Shown here in pieces: positions 9,453-64,000 of a DNA stretch of 64,000 nt. The notes under the pieces were generated by a model, which saw only the letters and a program-made list of their open reading frames with translations, was not told where the DNA came from and made no database searches. Both the position numbers and the translations under genes were made by a program. Within the stretch, counting starts at the first letter, position 1; the number at the start of each line of letters is the position of its first letter. This DNA comes from a virus, in the IMG/VR virus record IMGVR_UViG_3300020469_000009. One strand, written 5' to 3'.

Positions 9453-11299
9453 CTTATAAGGGAGGGCTTATAAATTGTTATAAGCTCTTCTTTACCTTTT
9501 ACTTTTATTTTATCCACTTCGATAGAGTCAATATTACTTAATAAGCTTTTAGTATATTGTGAGTATAATAATGGTATTACATTACCGTTGTCATCTTTGT
9601 AATTTCTTGTTTGTGCTTCTAGTCTAGCTGCTAAGTTAACAGCATCACCTATTACAGAATAATCTAATCTCATTTCACTACCCATATTACCAACAATACA
9701 AGTACCTGAATTTACTCCACTACCTATATTAATTTCTGGTAAACCTTTTGCTTTAAATTCTTTTTTAATCTCTTCAGTTTCTTGTGCACATTCAATAGCT
9801 GTTTTTACTGCCATTTCAGCATGATTGTCACAATCAAGTGGTGCATTCCAAAATGCCATAATACAATCACCCATATATTTGTCTATTGTACCACCATTCT
9901 TTAAAACAATTTTAGTCATTCTATCTAAGTAATCATTTATTACTTTGACTAATCCTTCCGGGTCATCATTATTTTTGTAATGTTCAGAAATAGGTGTAAA
10001 TCCTACAATGTCCATAAATAAGAAACTCATATCTTTTCTATCACCACCTAATTTTATTTTATCAGGATTTTTCTGTAGTATAGCTACTTGCCTTGGGTCT
10101 AAATACTTTTCAAATTGTTTTCTTATTTGTTGTTTTAAATTAAATTCTAATATGAACCTATTGAATATAGAATGCATTGCAACAATAGTGAATGTAATTA
10201 TAAACCAACTAATATCATATAACGTAAGTGATTGATTGAACATAAACACTACAAAGTAAACACTACCAATATAAACACCAATTGTAAATAAACCTATTAG
10301 CCAGTACGGTGCTATTCTTACAATTGCAATTAATAATGCTGCTATTAAAACACATAAAATCATTTCAATTAAAAAACTAGTATCATCTCTTTTAATATGA
10401 GTACCATCAATAATTGTTTGTAAACTTGATGCAATAATATAATGATTATATTGTTCACCTGCAGATGTAGCAACTAATGGTGACAAACCTTCTGCAGTTA
10501 AAGATACAATTACTGTTTTACCTTCTGTTAATGCAAATTCTAAATCATCATCTGCGATTGAGATACTATCAAATGTCTTATTATGATTAATCCAAATTCT
10601 AGCATTCCTATCAGTTTTTATTGTAGCAAAACCAGGAACTCTTACAGCAATGATACCATTTGCATCAGCTTTAACTTGATAAGATGGGTCACCTGTAATA
10701 GCTCTTATAGTTTCAATTGCCATTGCTGGAAATACATCATCACCAACTCTCATTAGTAAAGGTAATCTTCTAACTAATCCATCTATTTCTGGTGCTGTAT
10801 TAATAACACCAACACCATTTGCTTCTAGTTCAGGTATAGGACCTAACATTCCACCCCATGAAAATAAGAAAGGTAAAGGGTCACCGATTTTAGCTATTCC
10901 TCTAGGTACCGCATTTTTATTAGTTTGATTTGTACCAACTTGTGCTATTACTGTACCATATTGTAATGCTTCAGAAAATATTAAGTCTCCACCTTGTCTA
11001 TCATTTTCAGAAAATAACATAGGGAATAATATCATACCAGCATTTGCTTGCCTTAACTTTATTATAAGTTCAGAATATATTTCTCTATTGAAAGGATATT
11101 GCCCATATTTTTCTATAGCTTTTTCATCTATCTCTACAATAACAATATCTTTTGAATAAGTTTTTTCTTGTGAATTTATAATTGTATCAAAACCTTTCAA
11201 CCTTAATACTTCTTTTAAATATGGGTCTTGCCAACCATAAAACGTAATTGCTGCCAATGTAAGAAATGCTATTGTCCAATGTGTAAATATTTTTATCAT
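9449..11299 (-). CDS. CHASE2-domain class III adenylate/guanylate cyclase
   Basis: IVIVEIDE...YG.YP..R, DG.VRR.PL, three TM helices, FMDIVGFT, DKYMGDCIMAFWNAP, DYSVIGDAVNLAARLE. Confidence 0.93.
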   Translation of the reverse strand: MIKIFTHWTIAFLTLAAITFYGWQDPYLKEVLRLKGFDTIINSQEKTYSKDIVIVEIDEKAIEKYGQYPFNREIYSELIIKLRQANAGMILFPMLFSENDRQGGDLIFSEALQYGTVIAQVGTNQTNKNAVPRGIAKIGDPLPFLFSWGGMLGPIPELEANGVGVINTAPEIDGLVRRLPLLMRVGDDVFPAMAIETIRAITGDPSYQVKADANGIIAVRVPGFATIKTDRNARIWINHNKTFDSISIADDDLEFALTEGKTVIVSLTAEGLSPLVATSAGEQYNHYIIASSLQTIIDGTHIKRDDTSFLIEMILCVLIAALLIAIVRIAPYWLIGLFTIGVYIGSVYFVVFMFNQSLTLYDISWFIITFTIVAMHSIFNRFILEFNLKQQIRKQFEKYLDPRQVAILQKNPDKIKLGGDRKDMSFLFMDIVGFTPISEHYKNNDDPEGLVKVINDYLDRMTKIVLKNGGTIDKYMGDCIMAFWNAPLDCDNHAEMAVKTAIECAQETEEIKKEFKAKGLPEINIGSGVNSGTCIVGNMGSEMRLDYSVIGDAVNLAARLEAQTRNYKDDNGNVIPLLYSQYTKSLLSNIDSIEVDKIKVKGKEELITIYKPSLIS

Positions 11300-12615
11300 T
11301 AGTTCTGTGTCACCGTTGCTGAACAACTTGGGTTAGTACAATTCTGGTCTAAGTGATAATTCTGTGCTGTTGAACTATCTTGTGTTAATGTAAGTGATGA
11401 ACTATTACCAGTTAAATTTAAGTATGCATTGTGACTACCTGAGCCATCTTGATTTACATTAACTGTATGACTATCTCCTAAGTTGATGTCTAAAAAGTGA
11501 TTTCCTGTACCTTGTTGCAATGTTGTGACATTATTACTATTGCCAATATCTATGAAGAGTATTTTATCACCAGTTTCTTTTTGCCATAAACTTAATACGT
11601 TATTATTACCATCTATATCTATGTCTGCAAAGTGTTCACCATTATTGTTTAGATGTTCTTGTTTTAAACTTAAAGTATTAGATGTACCAACAATATCCAC
11701 AATTGCTCTTTGATTTTGATTTTGCCATATATCTATGTCATTTGAATTACCATTTACATCAATACCAAGTATATTGTTATTACCATATTGCGCAATATCT
11801 AAATCTATATTATCACCAGTAATTACACTAGCGGCTGATAAGTTAGTACCTATCACTGCATTATTATCACCATCTTGTAAAATATCTAAATCAATACCAC
11901 TGCCACTTTGTGTGACATAGATACTATTTGTAGTGCTTGTAGTATTCTTTGTATTTGTGACTGTTGTTTGTTGTGATGATGTAATGCCTGATAGAACTGA
12001 TAGAGTTAAAGCAAAATGATCACTATTCATATCTAACCAACCACTTGTAGAGTTTAAACTTAAATTAGATAAACTATAATGAATATCCATATTGGCAGAA
12101 CCTGTCCATTCATACCAGTTAATTTGTATTGGGTACCATTGTCCACCTACACCAGAAAATGAACCATTAGAGTTCCAATATCTTGGACCTTGTTGAGCCC
12201 AGTCAGATATTACTTTAGTATTATTGATGTTGACAATAAGGCCATCATCATTACGACCAGCAAAATATACTGTAGATGTTTGACCTGTGGTTCCTGGATG
12301 TTGCCAATAACCGGTAATAACTACCATTCTCTGATTACCACCATAATTATTATTATGAAGAACTATGTTTCCACTATTCCAGTTATAATTTAAACTGTCA
12401 ATAGTACCAGTTCCTTGTGATGTACCTACATAAGCTGGATTAGTATTATTACAGGTAGACAGATATGTATAGTTATTATAACAAGGTGCTTCTACATAAG
12501 GTGCATAATGACTAATAGCAAACACCTCATAGTTTAATGAACCAGCTTCTGCCTTTTCATTAATTAAAAGAACAAGAAATAAAACACTAATTACTTTGAT
12601 AAATGCGAATCTCAT
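11299..12615 (-). CDS. Secreted PA14-like domain plus curlin repeats (CsgB-like)
   Basis: Signal peptide; NDDG and WYE..G.A PA14-like motifs; repeated I.Q.G..N curlin units. Confidence 0.75.
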   Translation of the reverse strand: MRFAFIKVISVLFLVLLINEKAEAGSLNYEVFAISHYAPYVEAPCYNNYTYLSTCNNTNPAYVGTSQGTGTIDSLNYNWNSGNIVLHNNNYGGNQRMVVITGYWQHPGTTGQTSTVYFAGRNDDGLIVNINNTKVISDWAQQGPRYWNSNGSFSGVGGQWYPIQINWYEWTGSANMDIHYSLSNLSLNSTSGWLDMNSDHFALTLSVLSGITSSQQTTVTNTKNTTSTTNSIYVTQSGSGIDLDILQDGDNNAVIGTNLSAASVITGDNIDLDIAQYGNNNILGIDVNGNSNDIDIWQNQNQRAIVDIVGTSNTLSLKQEHLNNNGEHFADIDIDGNNNVLSLWQKETGDKILFIDIGNSNNVTTLQQGTGNHFLDINLGDSHTVNVNQDGSGSHNAYLNLTGNSSSLTLTQDSSTAQNYHLDQNCTNPSCSATVTQN

Positions 12616-13714
12616 TTCCTTGTCCTCCCAATTCAAAGTCATATACTTCAAAATCTTCTTGTGTAAAACTTATAATATAACCATACTCTTTATCAAGTCT
12701 TAATTCAAAATATGTTGATGCACCTTCTCTTGCATATACCCAGTCCGGGTCTTCATCTAAAATTATAATACCTGTTTCAGGGTCTTTACCTAATCTTATA
12801 CCATCAATGGAAGCTTCTTCTTGTTTTGTAAACTCACTTCTCATAGCTTTAGCAAGTTCTTTATTAATTTGTGCTAATACATCTACTAAAAAATTTTGTT
12901 CTAAAAAATCTATATCTAAACCCGTTGTCCAGGTATCATTGTCTATTTCTAATTCATCTACTTCTAAATCATTAAATTCTAAAAAGTCTATATCTAAAGC
13001 ATTTGCAACTTCATTATATTCAGCTTTTTCTTGTTGGTCTACAATTTCTTGAGGTTTCTGTATTATCAATAAATTGCCAATCATATTTTCATCTAAATCT
13101 AAAATAACTGGCTTCATTGGTTTTGCTTCACCAGTTGTGACTACAGTTGCTTGAAAAGCTTGATTCATTATTACAAAACCAGCATCTGTTTCAACTTCAA
13201 TTTCTCCTACATAACAATAACCCTTTGTATCGCATGACGGTAATAGGATTATTGTTGAACCACCAATCTCATCTACAGTCATAGTAAAATCAGTACCTCT
13301 TACACCTATGGTGGCAGTTGGTGTTTCAATGTTTACATTTTGAGCATAGTTCTTAGCAATTTGCCCTGATGCATAACGCACGGTACCTAATGTCGCTTTA
13401 ATAGAGAGAGAACCCATGTTATTAGCTGGGTCATATACAAACTCATCAATTATAAGTTTTGAATGTTCTGTGACATCTACGCGAGTGTCGTCAATAAAGG
13501 ATATAGCTGTTTTACCATTCCCTGTCTTAACGACATCATAAGAAAATACATTTAATCCTTCGATTGATATATTTTCTTCACCACTTTGTTCTATAACAGC
13601 ATTGCCTTCTTGGAGAATTACATCTCCTATAGATTGTCCATATACTTCTTTACCATAAAAAAGTAAAAACACAATACCTATTAAAAAGGCAATAACTCTT
13701 ATTAGAGCACGCAT
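12587..13714 (-). CDS. FecR-domain periplasmic protein
   Basis: D.V.TG.G...I.F.D.T, G.VRY.SG, TPTATIGVRGTDF. Confidence 0.88.
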   Translation of the reverse strand: MRALIRVIAFLIGIVFLLFYGKEVYGQSIGDVILQEGNAVIEQSGEENISIEGLNVFSYDVVKTGNGKTAISFIDDTRVDVTEHSKLIIDEFVYDPANNMGSLSIKATLGTVRYASGQIAKNYAQNVNIETPTATIGVRGTDFTMTVDEIGGSTIILLPSCDTKGYCYVGEIEVETDAGFVIMNQAFQATVVTTGEAKPMKPVILDLDENMIGNLLIIQKPQEIVDQQEKAEYNEVANALDIDFLEFNDLEVDELEIDNDTWTTGLDIDFLEQNFLVDVLAQINKELAKAMRSEFTKQEEASIDGIRLGKDPETGIIILDEDPDWVYAREGASTYFELRLDKEYGYIISFTQEDFEVYDFELGGQGNEIRIYQSN

Positions 13715-18712: not shown

Positions 18713-20011
18713 ATGTCAAAAATAAAAGTAGGAATCATTGGAATTGGTTCCTGTGCCAAAAGCCTAGTTGAAGGCATTCAATACTACAACGAAAATCCAG
18801 AAGATAAAGTCGGTCTTATGTACGAAGATATCGGTGGATATGGAACTAAAGATATCGAATTTGTCTTAGGATTTGATATTGATGTAAGAAAAGTAAACAA
18901 ACCATTAGCTGAAGCTTTAAGAGCTGCACCAAATTGTTCAATGAATCATGTTAGTTCAATTTATACAAATGGTGATAGTAATTCTAGTTGTGTAAAATCT
19001 AAAGCAATGGTTTATTCAGCACCAGAACTAGATGGGATAGCACCTCACATGCATGATTATCCTGATGAAGTCACATTTGTAAATGGTGCAATACCAGCAG
19101 AATCATTTGAAAGAACTGTAGAGTTAATAAAGTATCATGATGTAGATGTTCTTATTAATTATTTACCAGTGGGTTCTGAAGATGCTACAAAATATTGGAT
19201 TGATGTTGCATTAGATGCAGGTGTTAATTTTGTTAATTGTATACCTACATTAATATCTACTGAAGAAGCTATGGCAACTGAACAAAGATTTATAGATGCA
19301 GGTTTAACAATTGTTGGAAGTGATATGCGTTCAGCTTGGGGAGCATCTCGTATGTCAGAAGTATTACAAGGTGCAATGCTTGATTCTGGTTTACAGGTCA
19401 CACAACACATTCAAATGAATATGGCAGCTGGTTCTACACAAGGTCAAGAAACTATACGTACGGGACGTACAGCAAATACAGACTTTTTGAATATGGCTAA
19501 ACAAGATAGATTAAAATCTAAACATATTTCTAAAGAAAATGTTTTAAAAGGTCAGAATATTGTAAGGGATGAAACAACAGCAGGTATGACACTATTTGCT
19601 GGTCCATCTTTAACAGTACAACAAAAACCAGGTGGTGAATACATTCCATCAGATAATAAGATAGCAAACTTTGATATAGTTGCTTATGGATTTGGTGGTG
19701 CAAGGTATGAAATGTCAGCTAGGTTATCAGTTCAAGATAGTCCAAACTCTGGTGGTGTTGTAGTATCAGCCATTAGGTTCTGTAGAGTTGCTAATGAAAT
19801 GGGTATTGTTGGTTATCTAAGAGGTCCAAGTGCATGGACACAGAAATCTCCACCAGTACAATTAAAAACTGATGTTGCAAAAGCTGAATGTGATGCTTTA
19901 GCAGAAAGAAAATTTACTGAAATGACTACAGCTCAAATAAAAGATAATAGACCTAAAGCAAAAGACTTACCACATACATTTCAAGCTGGAAAGACTGATT
20001 ATGAAAATTAA
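18713..20011 (+). CDS. ino1: Myo-inositol-1-phosphate synthase (Ino1/MIPS family)
   Basis: GIIGIGSCA..LV.G, YLPVGS..AT, FVNCIP, NTDFLNM, SK.ISK, DSPNSGG, KSPP. Confidence 0.9.
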   Translation: MSKIKVGIIGIGSCAKSLVEGIQYYNENPEDKVGLMYEDIGGYGTKDIEFVLGFDIDVRKVNKPLAEALRAAPNCSMNHVSSIYTNGDSNSSCVKSKAMVYSAPELDGIAPHMHDYPDEVTFVNGAIPAESFERTVELIKYHDVDVLINYLPVGSEDATKYWIDVALDAGVNFVNCIPTLISTEEAMATEQRFIDAGLTIVGSDMRSAWGASRMSEVLQGAMLDSGLQVTQHIQMNMAAGSTQGQETIRTGRTANTDFLNMAKQDRLKSKHISKENVLKGQNIVRDETTAGMTLFAGPSLTVQQKPGGEYIPSDNKIANFDIVAYGFGGARYEMSARLSVQDSPNSGGVVVSAIRFCRVANEMGIVGYLRGPSAWTQKSPPVQLKTDVAKAECDALAERKFTEMTTAQIKDNRPKAKDLPHTFQAGKTDYEN

Positions 20012-20381
20012 TACTTTTGATATTGATGGTGTTATAGACTTTGGTGATACGTACACGGGTGTACGGCCGTGTGCAAATGATATTATTATTACAGGTAGGT
20101 CTGTACATAGTGAAAGAGAAGCTACTGAAAAAATGCTTCATGCCCGCGGCATAAATAATATGTTATTTATGAATGACTTGCGAAAAGATGACCCTGAGTA
20201 CGGCCGTGAAGCTAGTGGAAGGTTCAAAGCAAAAATGATTACAATGTTAAAGAAACAAGGTTATGATATTGGTATGCATTTTGAAGATGATGAAATACAA
20301 ATCAAAGAAATTAAAAAAGAACATCCTGAATTACATATTGTACACTTGGTAAGACAAGACGGTATACATCCTTATGAATAA
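20001..20381 (+). CDS. Minimal (capless) HAD phosphatase
   Basis: FDIDGV, ITGR, K, HFEDD motifs I-IV. Confidence 0.85.
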   Translation: MKINTFDIDGVIDFGDTYTGVRPCANDIIITGRSVHSEREATEKMLHARGINNMLFMNDLRKDDPEYGREASGRFKAKMITMLKKQGYDIGMHFEDDEIQIKEIKKEHPELHIVHLVRQDGIHPYE

Positions 20382-21435
20382 ACTATTAGAAAAAAGAAAC
20401 GAAAATAACTTTCTAATATTTAATGAGTGGGTCAAAGAGTTCTTTAAAAGAGAATACCTAAGAGACTTTGGTGACCTAAATGATTATACACCCAGCCATG
20501 TTGCAATGAGAGAAGAAGTAAAGTATTGGAATCCTAATAGGTCTAAACATGCTGAAGTACATTGGTTAGAGAACTATGTGTTTGGTAGAGATGATATTAG
20601 TCTTAGAAACAAAATACTAAATGCAATGGCAGTTAAATTTGTAGGTATGCCAACACTTACATTAGTTGCTAGTAATTCAGCTGATTATAGTAATATTATA
20701 GACTTTGATAGATATGAAAAAGAAACAATATACAGACTTTTCATACAAAAAAATCTAAATGAAAATAAACATAAACTAGCTGTGTGGGGTTCAACACAAC
20801 TACAAACATCATTACAAACTGCAGCAAGAAATTATTGTAGAAGAACATACAATGACCCTGAGAAAAAGTTTCAATTATCAGATATGATTGACTGGATGTG
20901 TCATTTAGATAGACTTGGTTTATCTAGGACTGTGACAGACCAACAATCTACACTTGGTACTGTTTGTGAACACTTAAAACAGCATAGAGGTATTGGTCCA
21001 TATTTTTCTTATCATCCACCATGCAATTTTAGTAGAGCTGATGAATTACCATGTATTGATGAAGATGATGAGTATTGTTTAGTAGGGCCAGGTGCAAAAA
21101 GAGGTTTAGAATTTGTATTTCCAGATGTAAAATTTAGCAACAATGATATTATGGAAGAATATATTTTAGCTGTAAGAGATAATCAACATGAATTTTTTGA
21201 ATTTAAAAATGATACTGAACATGATTATTATAGAAACAATTTAGAGCGTGGTGGCAATTTAACTACCTTTGGTACAGAAATTACTTTTTGTCAGTTTAAT
21301 GTATTTCTTAGTATAAAAGATAATGAAAGAGCACAACAAAAAAGAATTGTACCATTAACATTTGATAGTTTTGAAACCATAGCAGAAAATTTAAACAAAG
21401 AAATGAATAAACCAACATTAGAGGCTTTTGTATGA
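20374..21435 (+). CDS. aGPT-Pplase-like (alpha-glutamyl/putrescinyl-thymine pyrophosphorylase clade) DNA base-hypermodification transferase
   Basis: HhH-like GIGPYFSY, D....VGPGAKRGL, E..FCQF pattern. Confidence 0.65.
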   Translation: MNKLLEKRNENNFLIFNEWVKEFFKREYLRDFGDLNDYTPSHVAMREEVKYWNPNRSKHAEVHWLENYVFGRDDISLRNKILNAMAVKFVGMPTLTLVASNSADYSNIIDFDRYEKETIYRLFIQKNLNENKHKLAVWGSTQLQTSLQTAARNYCRRTYNDPEKKFQLSDMIDWMCHLDRLGLSRTVTDQQSTLGTVCEHLKQHRGIGPYFSYHPPCNFSRADELPCIDEDDEYCLVGPGAKRGLEFVFPDVKFSNNDIMEEYILAVRDNQHEFFEFKNDTEHDYYRNNLERGGNLTTFGTEITFCQFNVFLSIKDNERAQQKRIVPLTFDSFETIAENLNKEMNKPTLEAFV

Positions 21436-21537: not shown

Positions 21538-22548
21538 GTGATGGAGGCTGGTAATATACTTAATTGCCCATTTATTCCTGTGGCAAAAAGAATAGCATCT
21601 CATAGAGGTGCTCAAGGTGTTATGTATGGTGACATGATTAAACAAGCTTATGGACAGTGTGATGTAAACTACGGTGGTGAAATACAAGAACATAATGATT
21701 ATGACACAATGTGGGTATATCATGGTAATGATTTTAGTGGAGGACTAAATATGTTTGGTGGTGTATATGGGTTTCCTTATGTACAAAACACTGTTAACTT
21801 TTCTAAGTTCAAAGGGAAGATAAAATCTATTGCTATTGATTTTCCACCTTACCATGAATGGATTAAAGATAAATTATCTAAAGCTAAAAAAGACCCACAA
21901 CCAGAATGGGCAAATGTAGATTTAGATAATTTAGAAAGAATGCATAAAGAAGCTGAAACTATAATACATCCAAATCAAACTAACAAATTAGTTATAGGTG
22001 ATTCACATTCTATTTGTATGTATAGACCTGGATGGACTATAAAAAGTATACCATTTAAAACACTCAATGGTATATTAAATGAGGGAATAGCTAATTACAT
22101 TCCAGATGAAGGTTTAAACTATAATGAAATAGAATTATACTTTGGCAATATTGATATAAGACATCATATTTGTAGAATGGATATTGATGTAAAAGAATTA
22201 GCTGATAGATATATTGAACAAGCAAAACAATTAGATGCAAAGATATATGAATTGTTGCCTATTGAAAATGAATCTAGAAAATTACCACAATCAGGTTATT
22301 ATAAAGGACAACCATTCTGGGGTACATGGCAAGAAAGAACTGATGCAAGAAATGAATTTAATGATTATATTGATAGCAAATATAGTATTATTAGATGGAC
22401 TGATAAATTACTAAATAGTAAAGGTGAATTAGATTTTGATTGTATGGAAAAACCTAAGTCAATACATTTAAGCAGAGAATACTATCCACATTGGAATGGT
22501 GTAGAATCAGATGCAATGTCACAAAGTTTGGAGGGTTTCTTTGGATAA
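21538..22548 (+). CDS. Conserved phage protein with SGNH-like C-terminal domain
   Basis: VIGDSHS, FGNIDIRHH, D...SIHL. Confidence 0.55.
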   Translation: MMEAGNILNCPFIPVAKRIASHRGAQGVMYGDMIKQAYGQCDVNYGGEIQEHNDYDTMWVYHGNDFSGGLNMFGGVYGFPYVQNTVNFSKFKGKIKSIAIDFPPYHEWIKDKLSKAKKDPQPEWANVDLDNLERMHKEAETIIHPNQTNKLVIGDSHSICMYRPGWTIKSIPFKTLNGILNEGIANYIPDEGLNYNEIELYFGNIDIRHHICRMDIDVKELADRYIEQAKQLDAKIYELLPIENESRKLPQSGYYKGQPFWGTWQERTDARNEFNDYIDSKYSIIRWTDKLLNSKGELDFDCMEKPKSIHLSREYYPHWNGVESDAMSQSLEGFFG

Positions 22549-23740
22549 TTTTACTTATGCAAGTATTGTGCCTCTTATAGGCGGTGAAACAATAGCAATG
22601 GAAAATGTTTTTGGTAAAAGACCTGAACATATTATGAGTTATTCAGGTTTCCAAGCTAATGAAGAACATTTGCTTAACCATTATAATAATGAAGTACCAT
22701 ATCATATTTTAGATGAAGGTAATCCTAAACCTAGTAAAGTGAATGTAGTAAATACTGTATGTCCATGTGCTGGTTTATCATCATTGTCACCACAAGCAAG
22801 TAGTGAGAATCATAATAATGATTGGATGAAAAAATCTACTGATTATGTTTTAAGTACTATGCAACCAGATGTTTTGTGGGGAGAGAATGCACCGAGGTTA
22901 GCATCTAAAATGGGTAGACCTGTAGTAGCTGAATTAAGAAAAATGGCTGATAAGTATGGTTATACATTTAGTATCTATCAAACAAAATCTATATTGCATG
23001 GATTAAGTCAAGTAAGAGATAGAACATTTTATTTCTTTTGGAAAGGTGATAAAGTACCTGTTATAGATTGGATTCATGAACCACATGAAAAAATAGAGGA
23101 TGCAATACGTAATGTTAAGTTATGTCCTGCTGATCCAATGAGTACTATACTTACAAATGAAAGAAAACCAACTGGCAATCCATTTTATAAGTATTGTTTA
23201 GAAGAACTTGAAGGTGGTATTACACATTCAGAATTTCAAGATAAAATAGAAAAATCTACTAATCCTTTAGACCATATTGAAAAACATACTAACTATAAAG
23301 TAGTTGGTGAATGGATGAAGAAGAATGGTTATGAAGGTGAATCAAAAAAATGTGAACGTATGTATGAAAAGTTAAAGTCAGGTGGTAATATAATGAGAAA
23401 AACTACTGAGATACCTAAAGATTACATTGGTGCTTTTGTAGGTCATATGCCAAGTTCACTTACACACCCAGATGAAGATAGATACTTATATGTAAGAGAA
23501 GCTTTATCTATGATGAGAATGCCAGAAGACTTTCAATTGTTGAATCCTAAAAGGTCACTTAATCATATATGTCAAAATGTACCTGTCACTACAGCTGAAC
23601 ATGCAGCAAGAGGTGTAAAAGCATTCCTTGAGGGAAGACTAGATAATAGAATGCTTGATACAAATTTTTTACTTCAAAATAATAAAGCACAAAAATTAGA
23701 TTACCAATCTAATACTTCACTGGAGGAGTTCTTTGGCTAA
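22511..23740 (+). CDS. DNA cytosine-C5 methyltransferase-like protein with degenerate SAM motif
   Basis: PCAGLS (motif IV), ENAP (VI), QVRDRTF (VIII), R.L.VRE....M..PEDF (IX), QNVP (X). Motif I reads VPLIGG rather than FxGxGG. Confidence 0.75.
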   Translation: MQCHKVWRVSLDNFTYASIVPLIGGETIAMENVFGKRPEHIMSYSGFQANEEHLLNHYNNEVPYHILDEGNPKPSKVNVVNTVCPCAGLSSLSPQASSENHNNDWMKKSTDYVLSTMQPDVLWGENAPRLASKMGRPVVAELRKMADKYGYTFSIYQTKSILHGLSQVRDRTFYFFWKGDKVPVIDWIHEPHEKIEDAIRNVKLCPADPMSTILTNERKPTGNPFYKYCLEELEGGITHSEFQDKIEKSTNPLDHIEKHTNYKVVGEWMKKNGYEGESKKCERMYEKLKSGGNIMRKTTEIPKDYIGAFVGHMPSSLTHPDEDRYLYVREALSMMRMPEDFQLLNPKRSLNHICQNVPVTTAEHAARGVKAFLEGRLDNRMLDTNFLLQNNKAQKLDYQSNTSLEEFFG

Positions 23741-24713
23741 GGTACTTATCACAGGTGGATATGGTCTAGTTGGTCATAGGGTTTGTGCTGAGCTAATGTC
23801 TGACAGTGATGTTAAACATGAAGTAGTTGTAGTTGATAACTATAATGACTATGGTGTAATACCTGAAAATGAAATGGAGTATACTTATAGAGCTAGAAAA
23901 GCTGTAATAGGTCATGTAAAAGATTACAATGTTGATATATGTTCTCATGATTTTGATGCTGTATTAGTAAAAGAAAAACCTGATATAGTGATACACTTAG
24001 CTTCATATCCAAGACAAGCAGTTGTAAATAAAAATCCACAACTAGCATCTCAAGTAATTATAGGTGGAACAATTAATGTAATTGAATCCTGTAAAAGACA
24101 TAATGTTAAAAGAATTGTATTAGCATCTAGTAGTATGGTATATGGAGAATTTGATGATGGTCAAAAAGAAACTGCCATTTGTAAACCGCAAGGTACTTAC
24201 GCAATAGCCAAACTAGCATGTGAACACTTAGTAAAAGACAGTGGGCTGGATTATACAATTGTAAGACCATCAGCAATTTATGGTGAATTAGATGTTAAAG
24301 ATAGAGTCATAAGTATATTTTTAATTAAGGCTATGTGTAATGAGACTCTCAAAGTAAATGGTGAGAATGAAAAGTTAGATTTTACTTATGTAGGAGATGT
24401 AGCAAAAGGTATGGCACAAATTATTAATAGTGATAAAACAATTAATGAAACTTTTAATCTTACAAAGAGTCATTCATGGACATTATATAGAGCTGCTCAA
24501 ATTGCCGTAAGTCTTGCCCAGTCAGGTTATATTGAAGTGGGAGATAAACATCCTGACTTTCCAAGTCGTGGTTCACTAGATATTACAAAGGCTAAAAAAG
24601 CATTTGACTTTTCCCCACGTGTAGACGTGGATGATGGATTTAGACTGTATTACCATTGGTTAAAAAATAGCCAATTCTGGTATAATTATATTACTGAAAG
24701 GAAAAAACTATGA
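23733..24713 (+). CDS. NAD-dependent NDP-sugar epimerase/dehydratase
   Basis: ITGGYGLVG, HLA, SSSMVYG, YAIAK, DFTYV.D. Confidence 0.92.
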   Translation: MAKVLITGGYGLVGHRVCAELMSDSDVKHEVVVVDNYNDYGVIPENEMEYTYRARKAVIGHVKDYNVDICSHDFDAVLVKEKPDIVIHLASYPRQAVVNKNPQLASQVIIGGTINVIESCKRHNVKRIVLASSSMVYGEFDDGQKETAICKPQGTYAIAKLACEHLVKDSGLDYTIVRPSAIYGELDVKDRVISIFLIKAMCNETLKVNGENEKLDFTYVGDVAKGMAQIINSDKTINETFNLTKSHSWTLYRAAQIAVSLAQSGYIEVGDKHPDFPSRGSLDITKAKKAFDFSPRVDVDDGFRLYYHWLKNSQFWYNYITERKKL

Positions 24714-30659: not shown

Positions 30660-31070
30660 ATGAGTATCTTTAAAGACATGAATAATATGCATATGAAGTA
30701 TATGGTGCCAGTTGTGGTCAACCGTATGAATCCAGATATGCTACAAAAGTTTATAGCATTTAGACTTGAATGCTGCCAAGAAGAATTAGATGAAACTAAA
30801 AATGCATTGGACAATAGAGACAAAGAAGAAATTGTTGATGGTCTTATTGACCTTATCGTATTTGCTGCTGGCACACTTGATATACTTAAAGTTGATGGTC
30901 AAAAAGCCTGGGAAGAAGTATACAAAGCAAATATGAATAAGCAAGTTGGCATTAAACCAGAACGTCCTAATCCTTATGGATTACCAGACTTAATTAAACC
31001 AGATAATTGGGAGGCACCTACTCATGGCGAAAATACTGGAATTCTCGGCAAAGTCTTTAGCAAAGACTGA
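30660..31070 (+). CDS. MazG-like all-alpha NTP pyrophosphatase
   Basis: EELDE, E.VDGLID, V..ANM.K, KP..W..P. Confidence 0.8.
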   Translation: MSIFKDMNNMHMKYMVPVVVNRMNPDMLQKFIAFRLECCQEELDETKNALDNRDKEEIVDGLIDLIVFAAGTLDILKVDGQKAWEEVYKANMNKQVGIKPERPNPYGLPDLIKPDNWEAPTHGENTGILGKVFSKD

Positions 31071-31770
31071 TTTACACCCTAAAGTTTCTGATGTAAAGTC
31101 TCACTTTATAAGTGAACTTACTAATGAAAAGTTTACCGTTGATAGAAGTGGTTCAAAAACTATAGAATTAATTGGTGCTTCTTTTATAGCTGATGAACCC
31201 GCTATCTTCGGTAAACCCAATCAATCTTATATAGACTATGAAATACAGTGGTATGATTCTATGTCAACTAACGTCTATGACATCTATGGTGAACTTGGTA
31301 AAGAAGGTGATGGTGTTAATTCTCCACCAGCCGCTTGGCTAGCTACAGCTAATCAATGGGGTGAAATCAATTCAAACTATGGTCATCTTATATTTGATAC
31401 AAAATATCACAATCAATATGATTCTGTTTTTCAAGAGCTACAAGCAAACCCAGACTCTCGTAGAGCATGTATGATTTACAATCGTCCAAGTATACAAGTT
31501 GAGTATGATGAAAATGGTAAGAATGATTTTATATGTACTAATGCTGTGACATATTATATTCGTGATAACCAACTACATTGTGTTGTTCAAATGCGTTCCA
31601 ATGATGTTATCTTTGGCTATCGTAATGATTATGCTTGGCAAAAAGAAATACAAACTAGATTGCATGAAGACCTAAGTAATGCCGGTATTGAAGACCTTAA
31701 GATTGGTCAGATGATATGGCAAGTTCAAAACTTACATGTCTATGAAAGACACTTTGATTTAGTCAAATAA
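31024..31770 (+). CDS. dCMP hydroxymethylase (T4 gp42-like, thymidylate synthase fold)
   Basis: G.INSNYG, DFICTN.V.Y.IRD, MRSND..FG.RNDYAW (Asp at the TS Asn177 position), LHVYERHF. Confidence 0.85.
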   Translation: MAKILEFSAKSLAKTDLHPKVSDVKSHFISELTNEKFTVDRSGSKTIELIGASFIADEPAIFGKPNQSYIDYEIQWYDSMSTNVYDIYGELGKEGDGVNSPPAAWLATANQWGEINSNYGHLIFDTKYHNQYDSVFQELQANPDSRRACMIYNRPSIQVEYDENGKNDFICTNAVTYYIRDNQLHCVVQMRSNDVIFGYRNDYAWQKEIQTRLHEDLSNAGIEDLKIGQMIWQVQNLHVYERHFDLVK

Positions 31771-41356: not shown

Positions 41357-42865
41357 TTAAACCTCGCTTTCTGTAATTATTATACTATCTCGAAATGATT
41401 TTAATTCAGGAAATGTAGCATTGAAATCAGTGTCTCTACGCTTATCATATTCAGCAATATATTTTACAAAGTCTTGTTCGTTTTGTTGTCTGAACGCATC
41501 TGACCATCTCGTATCACCCTTGAGTGTAGTGATTAACCTATCAATCTTTGTTATCTCATGGTCATTAAATCTACCAATCCTTGCATAGTACTTAGCATCT
41601 TCTAACCATTTTACAGCTGTTGGCATCATTTCTCTTTGAAACAAAAATATCGATAAAAAAGATGGATTACGTAGATATGGAAAATCTATAGTTAGTCTAC
41701 TATACTTTGGTATATTCTTAAGACCCATTTTCGGTGTATCTCTCATAGATGCCATAGATTTTACCCTTGCAACATCTTTTATAAACTCTGTGTATGATGG
41801 CAGACTTAGTGCATTTACTGTAGACATAATTGTGACATGAGACGGTGCATAATCTGTATCAGGCATATTCATAACATACCATTCCAGGTTCCTAATCCAC
41901 TTGTCATAGTCCATGCCAAATCTAATCCATTCTGATGCTGAGCCAAAAGCTTCAGCTGATGTATACATGTGTAGTTTCTTAATTTTCTTTTCAATAACTA
42001 GTCTCTTCAACATACCCATGACTCTTTCCCATAACTTATCTACTATACAAAAGTTAGAGTTAATGTGTAGTTCCATATTCGGTGCTGGATTATCAGTCAA
42101 GAATTCTAGTACTTTGATAGTGTCTTTTGACATAAATGGTTCACCACCAGTTATACGAAATACTTCTAACTTGTCATAGATATCTGGAAACCACTTCCAA
42201 AATGCTTCTACATATCTGTTAGGCTGATTGTTTGGTATTGGCATTTGATTTTGTGATTCAATATACTCTAGATTATTAAATTTACCAGATGTAGGATATG
42301 GACCATGCGACTTTATTTCTTGCATCCATTTAGAAGATATATGTGGTGCACAATACATACATTTAAAATTACATACATTACTAAATGATACTTCTAAATA
42401 AGATGGTGGTATATCAGCAGTAGAATCATTCTTTAATATTTCTGGTATGTATTTTGTAGCCCAAAAATCTCTTGACTTATAATATCTATCAGACAATGCA
42501 TCATCTTTTTTCTTACGGGCATCTTCTACCCGCCAACAATATTCACATTCACGTGGTCTAAATCCGTGTTTCATCTGATCACGCATTTTCATTTTATATT
42601 GTGTGTTATGCAAAGCACTAGGTCTGTTTAATAGTTCTGTCCAAGGTACTTTGTGAGTCCCTGGGTGGTGACAACTTTGTGTATGACCGTTTTGTAAGTG
42701 CAGTGTAGTTTGTTTCCATTTAGCTACACAAAAGGTGGGTGATATTTTATCTAAAGCTGATGCAAAATCTGTATCAGAGACAGCATTTCTACCATGCCTA
42801 ACATTTGATATACGTTCTAGGCTATCGCTATCTAAGTGCTTTAGATTTATTTTTCGATTTTCCAT
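41357..42865 (-). CDS. Radical SAM protein with auxiliary Cys-rich (SPASM/twitch-like) region
   Basis: CNFKCMYC, TGGEP; N-terminal C..KW, SCHH, CEYC. Confidence 0.88.
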   Translation of the reverse strand: MENRKINLKHLDSDSLERISNVRHGRNAVSDTDFASALDKISPTFCVAKWKQTTLHLQNGHTQSCHHPGTHKVPWTELLNRPSALHNTQYKMKMRDQMKHGFRPRECEYCWRVEDARKKKDDALSDRYYKSRDFWATKYIPEILKNDSTADIPPSYLEVSFSNVCNFKCMYCAPHISSKWMQEIKSHGPYPTSGKFNNLEYIESQNQMPIPNNQPNRYVEAFWKWFPDIYDKLEVFRITGGEPFMSKDTIKVLEFLTDNPAPNMELHINSNFCIVDKLWERVMGMLKRLVIEKKIKKLHMYTSAEAFGSASEWIRFGMDYDKWIRNLEWYVMNMPDTDYAPSHVTIMSTVNALSLPSYTEFIKDVARVKSMASMRDTPKMGLKNIPKYSRLTIDFPYLRNPSFLSIFLFQREMMPTAVKWLEDAKYYARIGRFNDHEITKIDRLITTLKGDTRWSDAFRQQNEQDFVKYIAEYDKRRDTDFNATFPELKSFRDSIIITESEV

Positions 42866-44276: not shown

Positions 44277-44716
44277 ATCTTTTCGTACTCCTTTAATACA
44301 CTATTAGCTACAGGTAATTGTAGAAAGTATGCTTCTATTTCCCAGGGACAGTCTTTGTAATTTACTTTCCTAGTGTCAAATAGTTCACCTTTCCATATCT
44401 TTTTATCTACACTAATATCTCTAACTTCTTTTCTTAAATACTGTTTAATGTGTATACACTCATGTGTAATTGTCACTATTAATTCTTCTAAGTCTTGTAA
44501 TATAGCCTGACTAATAATAATGTTAAATTCATCATCATCTTCTTCATGCATATATCCTACTGCTCTACCCATATCTTCTTCAAGGCCAACTTCTACATTA
44601 ATATAAATTGGTTTTACTCTACGTGGCATAAGTATATCAAATGCATTTTTTATAGCATCATGAATAGCAACACCTTGTCTTGGATCGTTAATACCTACAA
44701 TATCAAGTTCTATCAT
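44240..44716 (-). CDS. HExxH metallopeptidase-like protein
   Basis: THECIHIKQ, Y...PWE.EAY. Confidence 0.75.
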   Translation of the reverse strand: MIELDIVGINDPRQGVAIHDAIKNAFDILMPRRVKPIYINVEVGLEEDMGRAVGYMHEEDDDEFNIIISQAILQDLEELIVTITHECIHIKQYLRKEVRDISVDKKIWKGELFDTRKVNYKDCPWEIEAYFLQLPVANSVLKEYEKIWHSNQTAAAQQ

Positions 44717-45339
44717 TTTCTTTTATACCTCAAAGTTAGTCCTGTTTTTTTACCTGTAAAATTATTAGTACAATGTATTTTTTTATTATCAAATATAATT
44801 ATACTGTTTTCTTCAAATCTATATGTCTTACCTGATAAGTGTTGCCAACACCAAGTTGGAAACTGTGTAAGATGTTCTTTATAAAAAAATTCGTCTATCT
44901 TTCTACCTGTTTTATCTGTAATATTATAATCAAATGGACATCCACTTAATGCTGTATTTACACTGAACCTAGTGACTGGATGTATCATCATCCAAGTTTT
45001 GCTGTCCTCTTCCCATTTTTGGTCAAATATTACTAAACGACCTGTACCATTTGTTTCATCTTGTAATGGTATGACAATATTGACACTATCTTTCCATTCT
45101 TTCTGAAAATCTGTATGTGGATAAAAAGGTTTTGTGTGGCTATAATAATTACCTGATACATAGATAAAATCTGTACCAAGACACTGCCTTATAGTTTCTT
45201 GTACTAAATCTAAAGTCTCAGGTGTGACTGGTGCTTTAGCCATCTCAAATGTGTCATATTCATCAAAGCTATGGTAGATATCTAATAGTTTATTTCTAGT
45301 GTCGTCACTAAATATTTCACTAAGTTGTGCGGTGCGCAT
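44713..45339 (-). CDS. 2OG-Fe(II) oxygenase-like protein
   Basis: PHTD, N.VIPL, IIFD...IHC, K. Confidence 0.6.
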   Translation of the reverse strand: MRTAQLSEIFSDDTRNKLLDIYHSFDEYDTFEMAKAPVTPETLDLVQETIRQCLGTDFIYVSGNYYSHTKPFYPHTDFQKEWKDSVNIVIPLQDETNGTGRLVIFDQKWEEDSKTWMMIHPVTRFSVNTALSGCPFDYNITDKTGRKIDEFFYKEHLTQFPTWCWQHLSGKTYRFEENSIIIFDNKKIHCTNNFTGKKTGLTLRYKRK

Positions 45340-62140: not shown

Positions 62141-64000
62141 CTAACCTTCACAGGCTCGGCATTCATCGTTTTCCTCATGACCTTTATTTATATGAGCCAT
62201 GAACTCGTCATAACCACCTACATATTCACCTTTAAGATAAATTTGTGGGACAGTCTTAACATCTTTTCTTCCAGTGACTTCCGCAGCTGTTTTACCAAGT
62301 TTTTCAATATCAATAAAATCATACGGTATGTTTAGAATTCTAAATTCTTCTTTTGCCATGTGACAAAATGGACAGTCGTCTTTTCCATATATTACATTTC
62401 TGTCATTATCAACAAGAGCTACTCTTGCAACTTTATCAGATACAGTTTCGGCTCTTACTTTTGATTCAGTACGTAAATAATACAAACCTTTTAATCCTTC
62501 TTTCCAAGCTTTAACATGTACATCATTAACATAACTTCTATCTACACCTGTTGGAAAAAATAAATTAACACTTTGACCTTGGCAAATATATTTTTGTCTA
62601 TCTGCTGCATGTTGTACTACCCATCTTTGGTCTAATTCATCTGCTGTTTTAAATAATGTTTTATCTTCATCAGTTAAAAAAGTTAGATGCTGAACTGAAC
62701 CCTTATTAGTAATAATACTTTTCCATACACCCTTTTTATTTTCTCCAATATTCTCTAATACTCTTTCTAAATATTTGTTTTTTACCAAGAAACTTCCAGC
62801 TCTTGTTCTATGTGTATATGCATTTGCTTTCATCGGTTCAATAGAAGGAGAAGTAGAAAGAATGATACCACTACTAGCGTTGGGAGCAATTGCCAATAAG
62901 TGAGAATTACGTTTACCACTTCCATCACCGTCTAAATAATCTCCTCTTTCTTTTGCCAATAACTCTGTTTGTTCATGTGCTCTTTCATTTATTACTTTAA
63001 ATATATTAGTATTATACTCTCTTGCAACCTCAGTTTGCCAAGAACATCCTTTTCTTTGCAAGTATGAATGGAAACCCATTGCACCAAGACCTATACTTCT
63101 TTCTCTAGCTGCTGAGTATTTTGCTCTTGATATTGTATCTGGTGCATTTTTGATAAAATATTCTAATACATTATCAAGCATTGTAATCAAATCCTGCACT
63201 ATTGTAGTGTCTTTCCAATCGTCATAATACTCTAGGTTGAGTGAAGACAGACAACATACAGCTGTTCTATCCTCACTCGTAGGTAGATGGATTTCATTGC
63301 AGAGATTAGAACCATTGATTTTAAGACCAGCTTTTTTCAATGGTGCAGGAAGATGTTTATTTGCGGTGTCAATAAAGTTTAGATATGGCTCACCAGTTCT
63401 AAATCTTGTTTCTAATATTTGTTGCCATACTTTTCTAGCATTTTGTGTATCGGTGACACGTTGATCGTTAGGGTCTATAAAATCCCATTTTTCATTTGCA
63501 ATCACAGCTTTCATAAAATCATCTGTGATATTAATTGCATTGTGTATATTCAGTGCTTTTCTTTGTACATCACCTGTAGGTATTCTCAACTGCAAAAATT
63601 CCATAACATCGGGATGACCAATATCCATATATGCAGCATAAGAACCTTTTCGGGTTTTACCCTGACGATATGCTATCATATCTGCATCTACTGTATGTAA
63701 AAAAGGTATAGGTCCAGGTGCAATATCAGATATAGTACGGACATCTGACCAGTGGCCACCAACTCCACCACCATAAACTGATAACCATCTTAGTTCAGAT
63801 GAATGACCAATCAAACCTTCTAAGGTATCTGGTACATAAGTTAAAAAACATGATATAGGCATACCTTTGTCTTCATTAGGTTTACCATTTGGTGCATTTG
63901 ATAAAACTGGAGATGCAAACATAAACCATTTTTTGCTAGCATACTCATATAGTCTTTGTGCTAATTCTTTATCTTCTTTATTTTTAAATTTAGACCATGC
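62141..64000 (-). CDS. nrdA: Ribonucleotide reductase alpha subunit with inserted glutaredoxin domain (5' end outside the window)
   Basis: PISCF, SNLCNEI, APNASS, LYYLR; then CPFC...TVPQI...VGG; terminal CRACEG. Frame stays open to the window edge. Confidence 0.95.
   Translation of the reverse strand, partial: AWSKFKNKEDKELAQRLYEYASKKWFMFASPVLSNAPNGKPNEDKGMPISCFLTYVPDTLEGLIGHSSELRWLSVYGGGVGGHWSDVRTISDIAPGPIPFLHTVDADMIAYRQGKTRKGSYAAYMDIGHPDVMEFLQLRIPTGDVQRKALNIHNAINITDDFMKAVIANEKWDFIDPNDQRVTDTQNARKVWQQILETRFRTGEPYLNFIDTANKHLPAPLKKAGLKINGSNLCNEIHLPTSEDRTAVCCLSSLNLEYYDDWKDTTIVQDLITMLDNVLEYFIKNAPDTISRAKYSAARERSIGLGAMGFHSYLQRKGCSWQTEVAREYNTNIFKVINERAHEQTELLAKERGDYLDGDGSGKRNSHLLAIAPNASSGIILSTSPSIEPMKANAYTHRTRAGSFLVKNKYLERVLENIGENKKGVWKSIITNKGSVQHLTFLTDEDKTLFKTADELDQRWVVQHAADRQKYICQGQSVNLFFPTGVDRSYVNDVHVKAWKEGLKGLYYLRTESKVRAETVSDKVARVALVDNDRNVIYGKDDCPFCHMAKEEFRILNIPYDFIDIEKLGKTAAEVTGRKDVKTVPQIYLKGEYVGGYDEFMAHINKGHEENDECRACEG

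Follow-up and report, generated by a model that had tools for sequence, protein, structure and literature searches.

An effectively phage-only clade of C5-methyltransferase-fold proteins with a variant motif I, located at the end of putative 5-hydroxymethylcytosine modification islands

The window analyzed here is a stretch of 64,000 nucleotides of viral DNA (IMG/VR record IMGVR_UViG_3300020469_000009) from a low-GC (~33%) marine T4-like phage, which encodes gp59, gp32, a gp41-type helicase, uvsX, plastoquinol oxidase, and curli-secretion genes; a megablast search against phage records gave no match. It contains a gene for a C5-DNA-methyltransferase-fold protein (DNMT, hereafter methylase-like), which, from its sequence and modeled structure, we predict to be a catalytically competent enzyme belonging to a large phage-only clade that closes 5-hydroxymethylcytosine (5hmC) modification islands. 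We tentatively favor, at somewhat below even confidence, a role as a clamp-tethered enzyme that would use an adenosyl cofactor to make 5-methylcytosine (5mC) at cytosines without a hydroxymethyl group. C5-methyltransferases and nucleotide-level 5hmC synthesis are usually regarded as alternative ways of modifying cytosine, which makes a paradox of an abundant and conserved methylase-like clade found only where C5 is already occupied. Its resolution would show either that 5hmC phages close gaps in their modification or that 5hmC DNA undergoes a hitherto undescribed enzymatic reaction; the latter, if true, could serve 5hmC labeling and sequencing chemistry.

The longest open reading frame (ORF) of the methylase-like gene runs from an ATG at 22511 to 23740 on the + strand (409 residues). 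The true start is probably the TTG at 22541 (22541–23740, 399 residues), because a GGAGG sequence (22530–22534) lies 6 nucleotides upstream, homologs begin with M.YASIVPLIGG, and the gene then overlaps the stop of the preceding gene; close homologs are 395–399 residues long. The gene is real: a clustered protein collection contains 2576 homologs at E ≤ 0.001 (best identity 89%), most of them derived from marine metagenomes, and there are a further 702 representatives at 50% clustering. The protein matches PF00145 with an E value of 8.3e-12 (45.6 bits, cut-off 22), although the match spans profile positions 64–320 only, beginning at motif IV and missing motifs I–III, and the stricter NCBIfam dcm model TIGR00675 scores 19.6 bits, below its cut-off of 100.65. 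A profile-profile alignment with E. coli Dcm likewise covered motifs IV–VIII only. An AlphaFold2 model built from an alignment of 81 relatives (predicted local distance difference test score 95.7) fits DNA-bound M.HhaI across its two domains (Z 25.3, root-mean-square deviation 3.1 Å over 291 residues; model residues 2–366 on M.HhaI 10–325), and also matches M.HaeIII (Z 25.2), CmoX (Z 23.4), and DNMT1. CmoX is the top Foldseek match of the model and the sole, marginal, match (PDB 8yf3) of a single-sequence PDB search.

The catalytic motifs are near-universal among 131 family members of 28–57% identity (residue numbers follow the 399-residue form, nucleotide positions are window coordinates, and the motifs lie on the + strand). 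Motif IV reads CPCAGLS (residues 74–80, 22760–22780), with the catalytic Cys76 present in 130/131 relatives; the next position is Ala, Ser, or Gly, likewise in 130/131, such that the family has a small residue where canonical enzymes have the Gln of PCQ. Motif VI (GENAP, 22880–22894) supplies the ENV-type Glu115, which is invariant (131/131) and followed by Asn in 129/131. Motif VIII (QVRDR, 23009–23023) retains the QxRxR pattern, with Gln in 128/131 and both Arg159 and Arg161 in 131/131. Motif IX reads RYLYVREAL..PEDF (the RE/PxDF block) and motif X reads QNVPV (23573–23587), where Gln345 is conserved in 128/131 and Asn346 in 125/131. The initial annotation, which had proposed a C5-methyltransferase fold with the catalytic motifs kept, is thus borne out by the PF00145 match, by the superposition on M.HhaI, and by the presence of the PC, ENx, QxRxR, RE, and QN motifs.

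That annotation had also read motif I as VPLIGG (residues 10–15, 22568–22585) in place of the canonical FxGxGG of C5-methyltransferases, and correctly so: VPLIGG falls on FAGIGG when the protein is aligned without gaps to E. coli Dcm, and the structural alignment agrees, placing Val10, Pro11, and Leu12 on Phe18, Ala19, and Gly20 of M.HhaI. Its description of this motif as degenerate does not hold. The family consensus is [IV][IV]PL[IV]GG, with Pro in 129/131, Leu in 127/131, and the two glycines in 129/131 and 126/131 relatives; motif I is, as judged from the alignment, an alternative, near-invariant motif under strong selection and not a decayed one. Nor is there support for the loss of S-adenosylmethionine (SAM) binding that had been read into it. 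The remaining SAM contacts are retained: motif II (ANE, residues 39–41, 22655–22663) has Asn in 122/131 and an acid in 127/131 relatives, the motif III Asp is kept in 97/131, and the motif X Asn is conserved as given above. The motif II acid binds the cofactor ribose in canonical enzymes, as does Glu-47 in CmoX (PMC12783734). Since the adenosyl-contact positions of motifs II, III, and X are conserved, loss of the cofactor does not follow from the change in motif I. At the motif V position the sequence is N-x-W-M (22817–22828; Asn in 126/131, Trp in 110/131), and we infer that this Trp may replace the lost motif I Phe in holding the adenine.

Compared with M.HhaI and M.HaeIII (PF00145), the methylase-like protein shares the two-domain fold, the PC Cys, the EN(V) Glu, QxRxR, RE, the motif II acid, and the motif X Asn, but has [IV]-P-L-[IV]-G-G for F-x-G-x-G-G, PC[ASG] for PCQ, and QNVP for GNxV. 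It also differs in its helical, conserved recognition domain, its clamp-type tail, its confinement to phages, and its tie to 5hmC synthesis, and its role as a methylase is a tentative prediction. CmoX, a carboxy-SAM-dependent DNA cytosine C5-carboxymethyltransferase of Synechococcus phage S-B43 (PDB 8yf3; PMC12783734), is likewise a phage protein of the C5-methyltransferase fold with a small residue after PC, and itself has a changed cofactor and transferred group. However, CmoX has the canonical motif I Phe, an SPPC sequence, and Arg350, where the methylase-like protein has VCPC and, as aligned to 8yf3, Asn346. The CmoX Arg, at the position of Asn304 in M.HhaI, binds the extra carboxylate of carboxy-SAM (PMC12783734); membership of the CmoX group and use of carboxy-SAM are ruled out by VCPC in place of SPPC and by Asn346 in place of this Arg. 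CmoX travels with CmoA and an amide ligase, whereas the methylase-like gene travels with gp42-type genes; no CmoA was seen among the annotated ORFs of the window, although no search aimed at CmoA was made.

The window encodes a MazG-like NTP pyrophosphohydrolase and an adjoining gp42-type dCMP hydroxymethylase (30660–31770, + strand). The latter, a thymidylate synthase (TS) homolog (31024–31770), matches T4 gp42 (PDB 1b49, E 1e-65) and has an acidic residue at the position of ThyA L143, Asp at D169, and Asp at N177, the signature of 5-hydroxymethyl-dCMP (5hm-dCMP) synthases under criteria that separate these from the 5-hydroxy-dCMP type (PMC13326640). By the same criteria, 5-hydroxy-dCMP is ruled out as the product, since Asp is retained at the position of ThyA D169. 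The earlier suggestion that this phage likely uses 5hmC is therefore well founded. A dCMP-type TS homolog (N177 to Asp) lies near the methylase-like gene in 21/22 close loci with at least 7 kb of upstream sequence, in 9/13 loci from metagenome-assembled genomes (MAGs), and in both phage isolates, and the co-occurrence extends to distant lineages of 28–35% identity. The initial annotation had asked whether the clade occurs together with gp42-like genes; as far as fragmentary contigs allow, the answer is strongly positive. All 72 of the 72 neighboring dCMP-type homologs have the D..D pattern (D169 kept, N177 to Asp), and none is of the 5-hydroxy-dCMP type. In lineage B, the one large lineage without a nearby TS homolog, a homolog with the same signature lies ~55 kb away in 3/4 contigs. 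The converse fails, in that T4 and its kin have gp42 without a methylase-like gene. The 'ThyA' of Cyanophage S-TIM54 (L001:6129–6971), beside an S-TIM5-type methylase-like gene, has Asp at N177 and a non-acidic Cys at L143; its product would be 5m-dCMP or 5hm-dCMP.

The family is effectively phage-only and stands outside restriction-modification systems. A search of 50,697 phage records found it in S-TIM5-type cyanophages and Pseudoalteromonas phage XG4 (vB_Psh_XG4) alone, and among 185,579 prokaryotic species (one genome each) there are only 17 loci, all on MAG contigs with phage gene content; none was found in cultured bacterial genomes or in restriction-modification contexts. Relatives are annotated in databases as 'site-specific DNA-cytosine methylase', and no publication describing this PLIGG-type phage clade turned up in a literature search.

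The methylase-like gene is the constant last member of an island whose middle cassette varies. In 28 close loci the order is MazG-like, a small ORF, gp42, inositol-3-phosphate synthase, HAD phosphatase, aGPT-Pplase-like, SGNH-fold, and methylase-like. In the window the cassette comprises, all on the + strand, an inositol-3-phosphate synthase homolog with a small HAD phosphatase (18713–20381), both identified by family matches, an aGPT-Pplase-like protein (PF18723 HMUDK_hel, 20374–21435), and a protein of the SGNH/GDSL-hydrolase fold (21538–22548, a fold match) that overlaps the start of the methylase-like gene. The MazG-like and gp42 genes are directly upstream of the island in most relatives and at the downstream position given above in the window. 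In other loci the cassette between gp42 and the methylase-like gene instead comprises a dCMP deaminase (cd), a homolog of T4 alpha-glucosyltransferase (AGT; PF11440, E 8e-30) or a TET-associated glycosyltransferase (TAGT; PF20691, E 4e-19), and sugar genes (epimerases, mutase, or cytidylyltransferases); in these AGT- and TAGT-type loci uvsX comes after the methylase-like gene, which is ~65% identical to that of the window in spite of the lack of inositol genes. Distant lineages have the same layout with GT-B, GT2, and GT1 enzymes. At least four hypermodification cassettes thus replace one another between gp42 and the methylase-like gene: the AGT, TAGT, and inositol types and one of galactofuranose- or heptose-like sugar genes (loci L007, L023, L026, L049, L055, L057, L058, L064–L066, L070, L073, and L077).

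The methylase-like protein ends in SLEEFFG (23717–23737, + strand), which, from its likeness to the end of the T4 DNA polymerase gp43 and from tail co-variation, we presume to be a sliding-clamp docking peptide. The C-terminal peptide of gp43, which ends ASLDFLFG, docks on the gp45 clamp, and T4 AGT also binds gp45. The two proteins that precede the methylase-like protein end in SLEGFFG (SGNH-fold) and TLEAFV (aGPT-Pplase-like), and AGT homologs in related islands bear the same tail as the methylase-like protein. In at least five lineages the methylase-like tail co-varies with the tails of the DNA polymerase, AGT, GT-B, aGPT-Pplase-like, and SGNH proteins of the same contig, giving the pairs ..KNLF/..KSLF, ..LLSF/..LLEF, and ..LDQFMV/..LEEFFV, and, in an acidic-tail lineage, ..QMEEW with ..IGDEW and a polymerase ending ..NLDDW. 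This comparative evidence is good, and the tails presumably share a docking site, most simply the sliding clamp; docking there would imply action on replicating phage DNA. That such tails are common to the polymerase, the glycosyltransferases, and the aGPT-Pplase-like, SGNH, and methylase-like proteins suggests that whole modification pathways are coupled to the replisome. Complex prediction of the tail region (residues 335–399, with alignment) against the T4 gp45 trimer, which is not the phage's own clamp, gave a score of 0.24 (mark 0.32), which speaks neither for nor against docking; the gene for the phage's own clamp was not found in the window or in the nearest related record. Lineage-specific shared tails were seen at L140:2511–4966 and 10024–11142, at L131, L134, and L135, and at L088–L091. 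One lineage has the acidic ..[DE][DE]W tail in place of the hydrophobic ..LF or ..FF types.

In the mechanism that we tentatively favor, the tail would dock the enzyme on the phage sliding clamp, as is presumed for the DNA polymerase and the DNA glycosyltransferases, such that it acts on freshly replicated DNA. A cytosine-type base would be flipped and attacked at C6 by Cys76, aided by Glu115 and Arg159/Arg161. The adenosyl cofactor, most likely SAM, would bind in a pocket rebuilt at motif I (F-x-G to [IV]-P-L) and motif IV (PCQ to PCA), and methyl transfer would yield 5mC at cytosines that escaped pre-replicative replacement or, alternatively, at positions where the enzyme itself had removed formaldehyde. 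The outcome would be a genome in which every cytosine is blocked at C5, whatever sugar or inositol cassette the phage carries. Consistent with this proposal are the near-universal catalytic residues, the retained acids of motifs II and III, the motif X Asn in place of the carboxy-SAM-type Arg, and the lack of a recurring cofactor-synthesis gene among the family's neighbor clusters, together with the gene's independence of cassette type, its tie to 5hmC genes, its restriction to phages, and the co-variation of its tail.

Several observations weigh against this proposal. SAM binding and methyl transfer are predictions here. The motif I Phe and first Gly and the Gln of PCQ are changed family-wide, which a plain methylase does not explain; together these changes suggest a pocket enlarged near C5 or near the transferred group. 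Were dCTP completely replaced by 5-hydroxymethyl-dCTP, a methylase would have hardly any substrate; nevertheless the gene shows strong conservation and a tie to gp42-type genes. T-even phages do without an enzyme of this kind. Family members share a conserved target-recognition region, in contrast to sequence-specific methylases. Finally, there is no 5mC footprint. The window is poor in CpG (rho 0.42) and rich in TpG/CpA (1.21), but CpG rho ranges from 0.28 to 1.21 across contigs that carry the family and follows GC content, and CpG depletion was rejected as a footprint since it is not family-wide. As a separate observation, GATC is strongly avoided in the window, with 32 occurrences observed against ~199 expected under a second-order model.

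A possible, though rather doubtful, alternative is that the enzyme acts on 5hmC itself. Cys76 would add to C6 and the hydroxymethyl group would be eliminated or exchanged via an exocyclic methylene, giving a further 5-substituted cytosine or converting 5hmC to C or 5mC, while the old SAM pocket would hold a co-substrate. C5-methyltransferases carry out elimination and exchange chemistry of this kind on 5hmC in vitro without SAM. The tie of the family to hydroxymethylase-type dCMP TS homologs, the family-wide rebuilding of motifs I and IV around the C5/cofactor region, the conserved recognition region, and a clamp-type tail in common with genome-wide 5hmC glycosyltransferases all fit such a reaction. 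To our knowledge, however, C5-methyltransferase-fold chemistry on 5hmC has no natural precedent; the conserved adenosyl-binding motifs II, III, and X point the other way, and no shared nucleophile or product is apparent across cassettes that already encode complete 5hmC glycosyltransferases. The same chemistry has been proven for the non-homologous aGPT-Pplases on phosphorylated 5-hydroxymethyluracil (5hmU) (PMC8989533). In Clade 2 enzymes (M6 gp51, ViI gp247) an active-site thiolate attacks a 5-(phospho)hydroxymethylpyrimidine of DNA at C6, and an amine or hydroxyl then captures the exocyclic methylene (PMC8989533), which makes them a works-like parallel, with a relative encoded two genes upstream (20374–21435). 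They differ in lacking homology, in their helix-hairpin-helix fold, and in acting on 5hmU derivatives after a DNA kinase; the methylase-like protein has neither their homology nor their fold, and the PF18723 match belongs to the separate upstream gene. It is doubtful, but conceivable, that the methylase-like protein is the first natural C5-methyltransferase-fold enzyme with a 5hmC-DNA substrate, riding the clamp and exchanging, removing, or rebuilding the 5-substituent through a Cys-C6 adduct. If true, this would be a new cytosine hypermodification step common to thousands of marine T4-like phages.

It is improbable that the enzyme is instead a post-replicative DNA cytosine hydroxymethylase, converting leftover C to 5hmC with methylene-tetrahydrofolate or formaldehyde such that the glycosyltransferases could finish every site. 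This would account for the tie to gp42 and glycosyltransferases, for the altered cofactor loop, for the small residue that follows PC, and for the undiversified sequence specificity, and the addition of formaldehyde to C by C5-methyltransferases is known in vitro. We know of no precedent for a DNA cytosine hydroxymethylase of this type, though, there is no evidence of folate binding, and the conserved pattern in motifs II, III, and X is typical of adenosyl cofactors.

Even less probable is an ordinary orphan, sequence-specific anti-restriction C5 methylase with a coincidental 5hmC neighborhood. The full set of catalytic motifs, the Pfam score above cut-off, and the database annotation of relatives agree with this explanation, but dCMP-specific TS homologs co-occur across the lineages examined, including those of 28–35% identity, cultured bacterial genomes and restriction-modification contexts lack the family, its recognition region is conserved, and motif I is non-canonical throughout. 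TET-associated phage C5-methyltransferases, which supply 5mC for a TET dioxygenase in marine phage cytosine-hypermodification clusters (PMC8256090), resemble the methylase-like protein, in a comparison by description only, in being marine phage C5-methyltransferases in clusters with glycosyltransferases, epimerases, and redoxins. In contrast, their 5mC feeds TET, whereas here the 5hmC comes from a nucleotide-level synthase; no TET/JBP protein was seen among annotated neighbors or recurring neighbor clusters, although no dedicated TET profile search was made.

The least credible explanation is that of the initial annotation, in which this enzyme would join inositol or a sugar to 5hmC, making a DNA kinase dispensable: the inositol-phosphate synthase and phosphatase in the same operon and the lack of a P-loop DNA kinase in the cluster are in its favor, but the gene is equally present with AGT or TAGT cassettes, which glycosylate 5hmC directly, its adenosyl-binding motifs are conserved, and the inositol cassette already has an aGPT-Pplase-like coupling enzyme. 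That the gene is constant while cassettes are swapped therefore argues against the methylase-like protein as the inositol-coupling enzyme. In the window cassette the aGPT-Pplase-like protein is a better candidate for the coupling because its family carries out Cys-C6/exocyclic-methylene coupling (PMC8989533). The absence of a visible kinase stands, in that the cluster yielded no P-loop DNA kinase and the PF18723 protein is without a kinase domain; the question it raises is one for the cassette, with its aGPT-Pplase-like candidate, and not for the methylase-like gene.

The upstream neighbor (21538–22548) was considered as the missing DNA kinase and ruled out by its SGNH-hydrolase fold, which occupies the C-terminal 200 residues and in which G-D-S-H is invariant; the protein also carries a clamp-type tail. 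S-TIM5-type phages encode it as a fusion with the aGPT-Pplase-like protein (phrog_17781). An esterase or acyltransferase directed at DNA would be an unusual enzyme. Downstream, the start of an NAD-dependent epimerase/dehydratase gene (23733–24713, + strand, a family match) overlaps the stop of the methylase-like gene; an obligatory short-chain dehydrogenase/reductase (SDR)/epimerase partner was ruled out, as an adjoining SDR gene is present in 8/79 close loci and 33/81 diverse loci. In lineage B the stretch from the methylase-like gene to the DNA polymerase gene encodes two conserved proteins without a Pfam or PHROG match, one of 336 residues (L096:11245–12255, ..SSVF tail) and one of 249 residues (12302–13051) immediately before the polymerase. 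Elsewhere in the window, on the − strand, are a radical-SAM protein (41357–42865), a weak match to a WelO5-like 2-oxoglutarate oxygenase (44713–45339), and a ribonucleotide reductase large subunit (62141–63922) with a C-terminal glutaredoxin domain.

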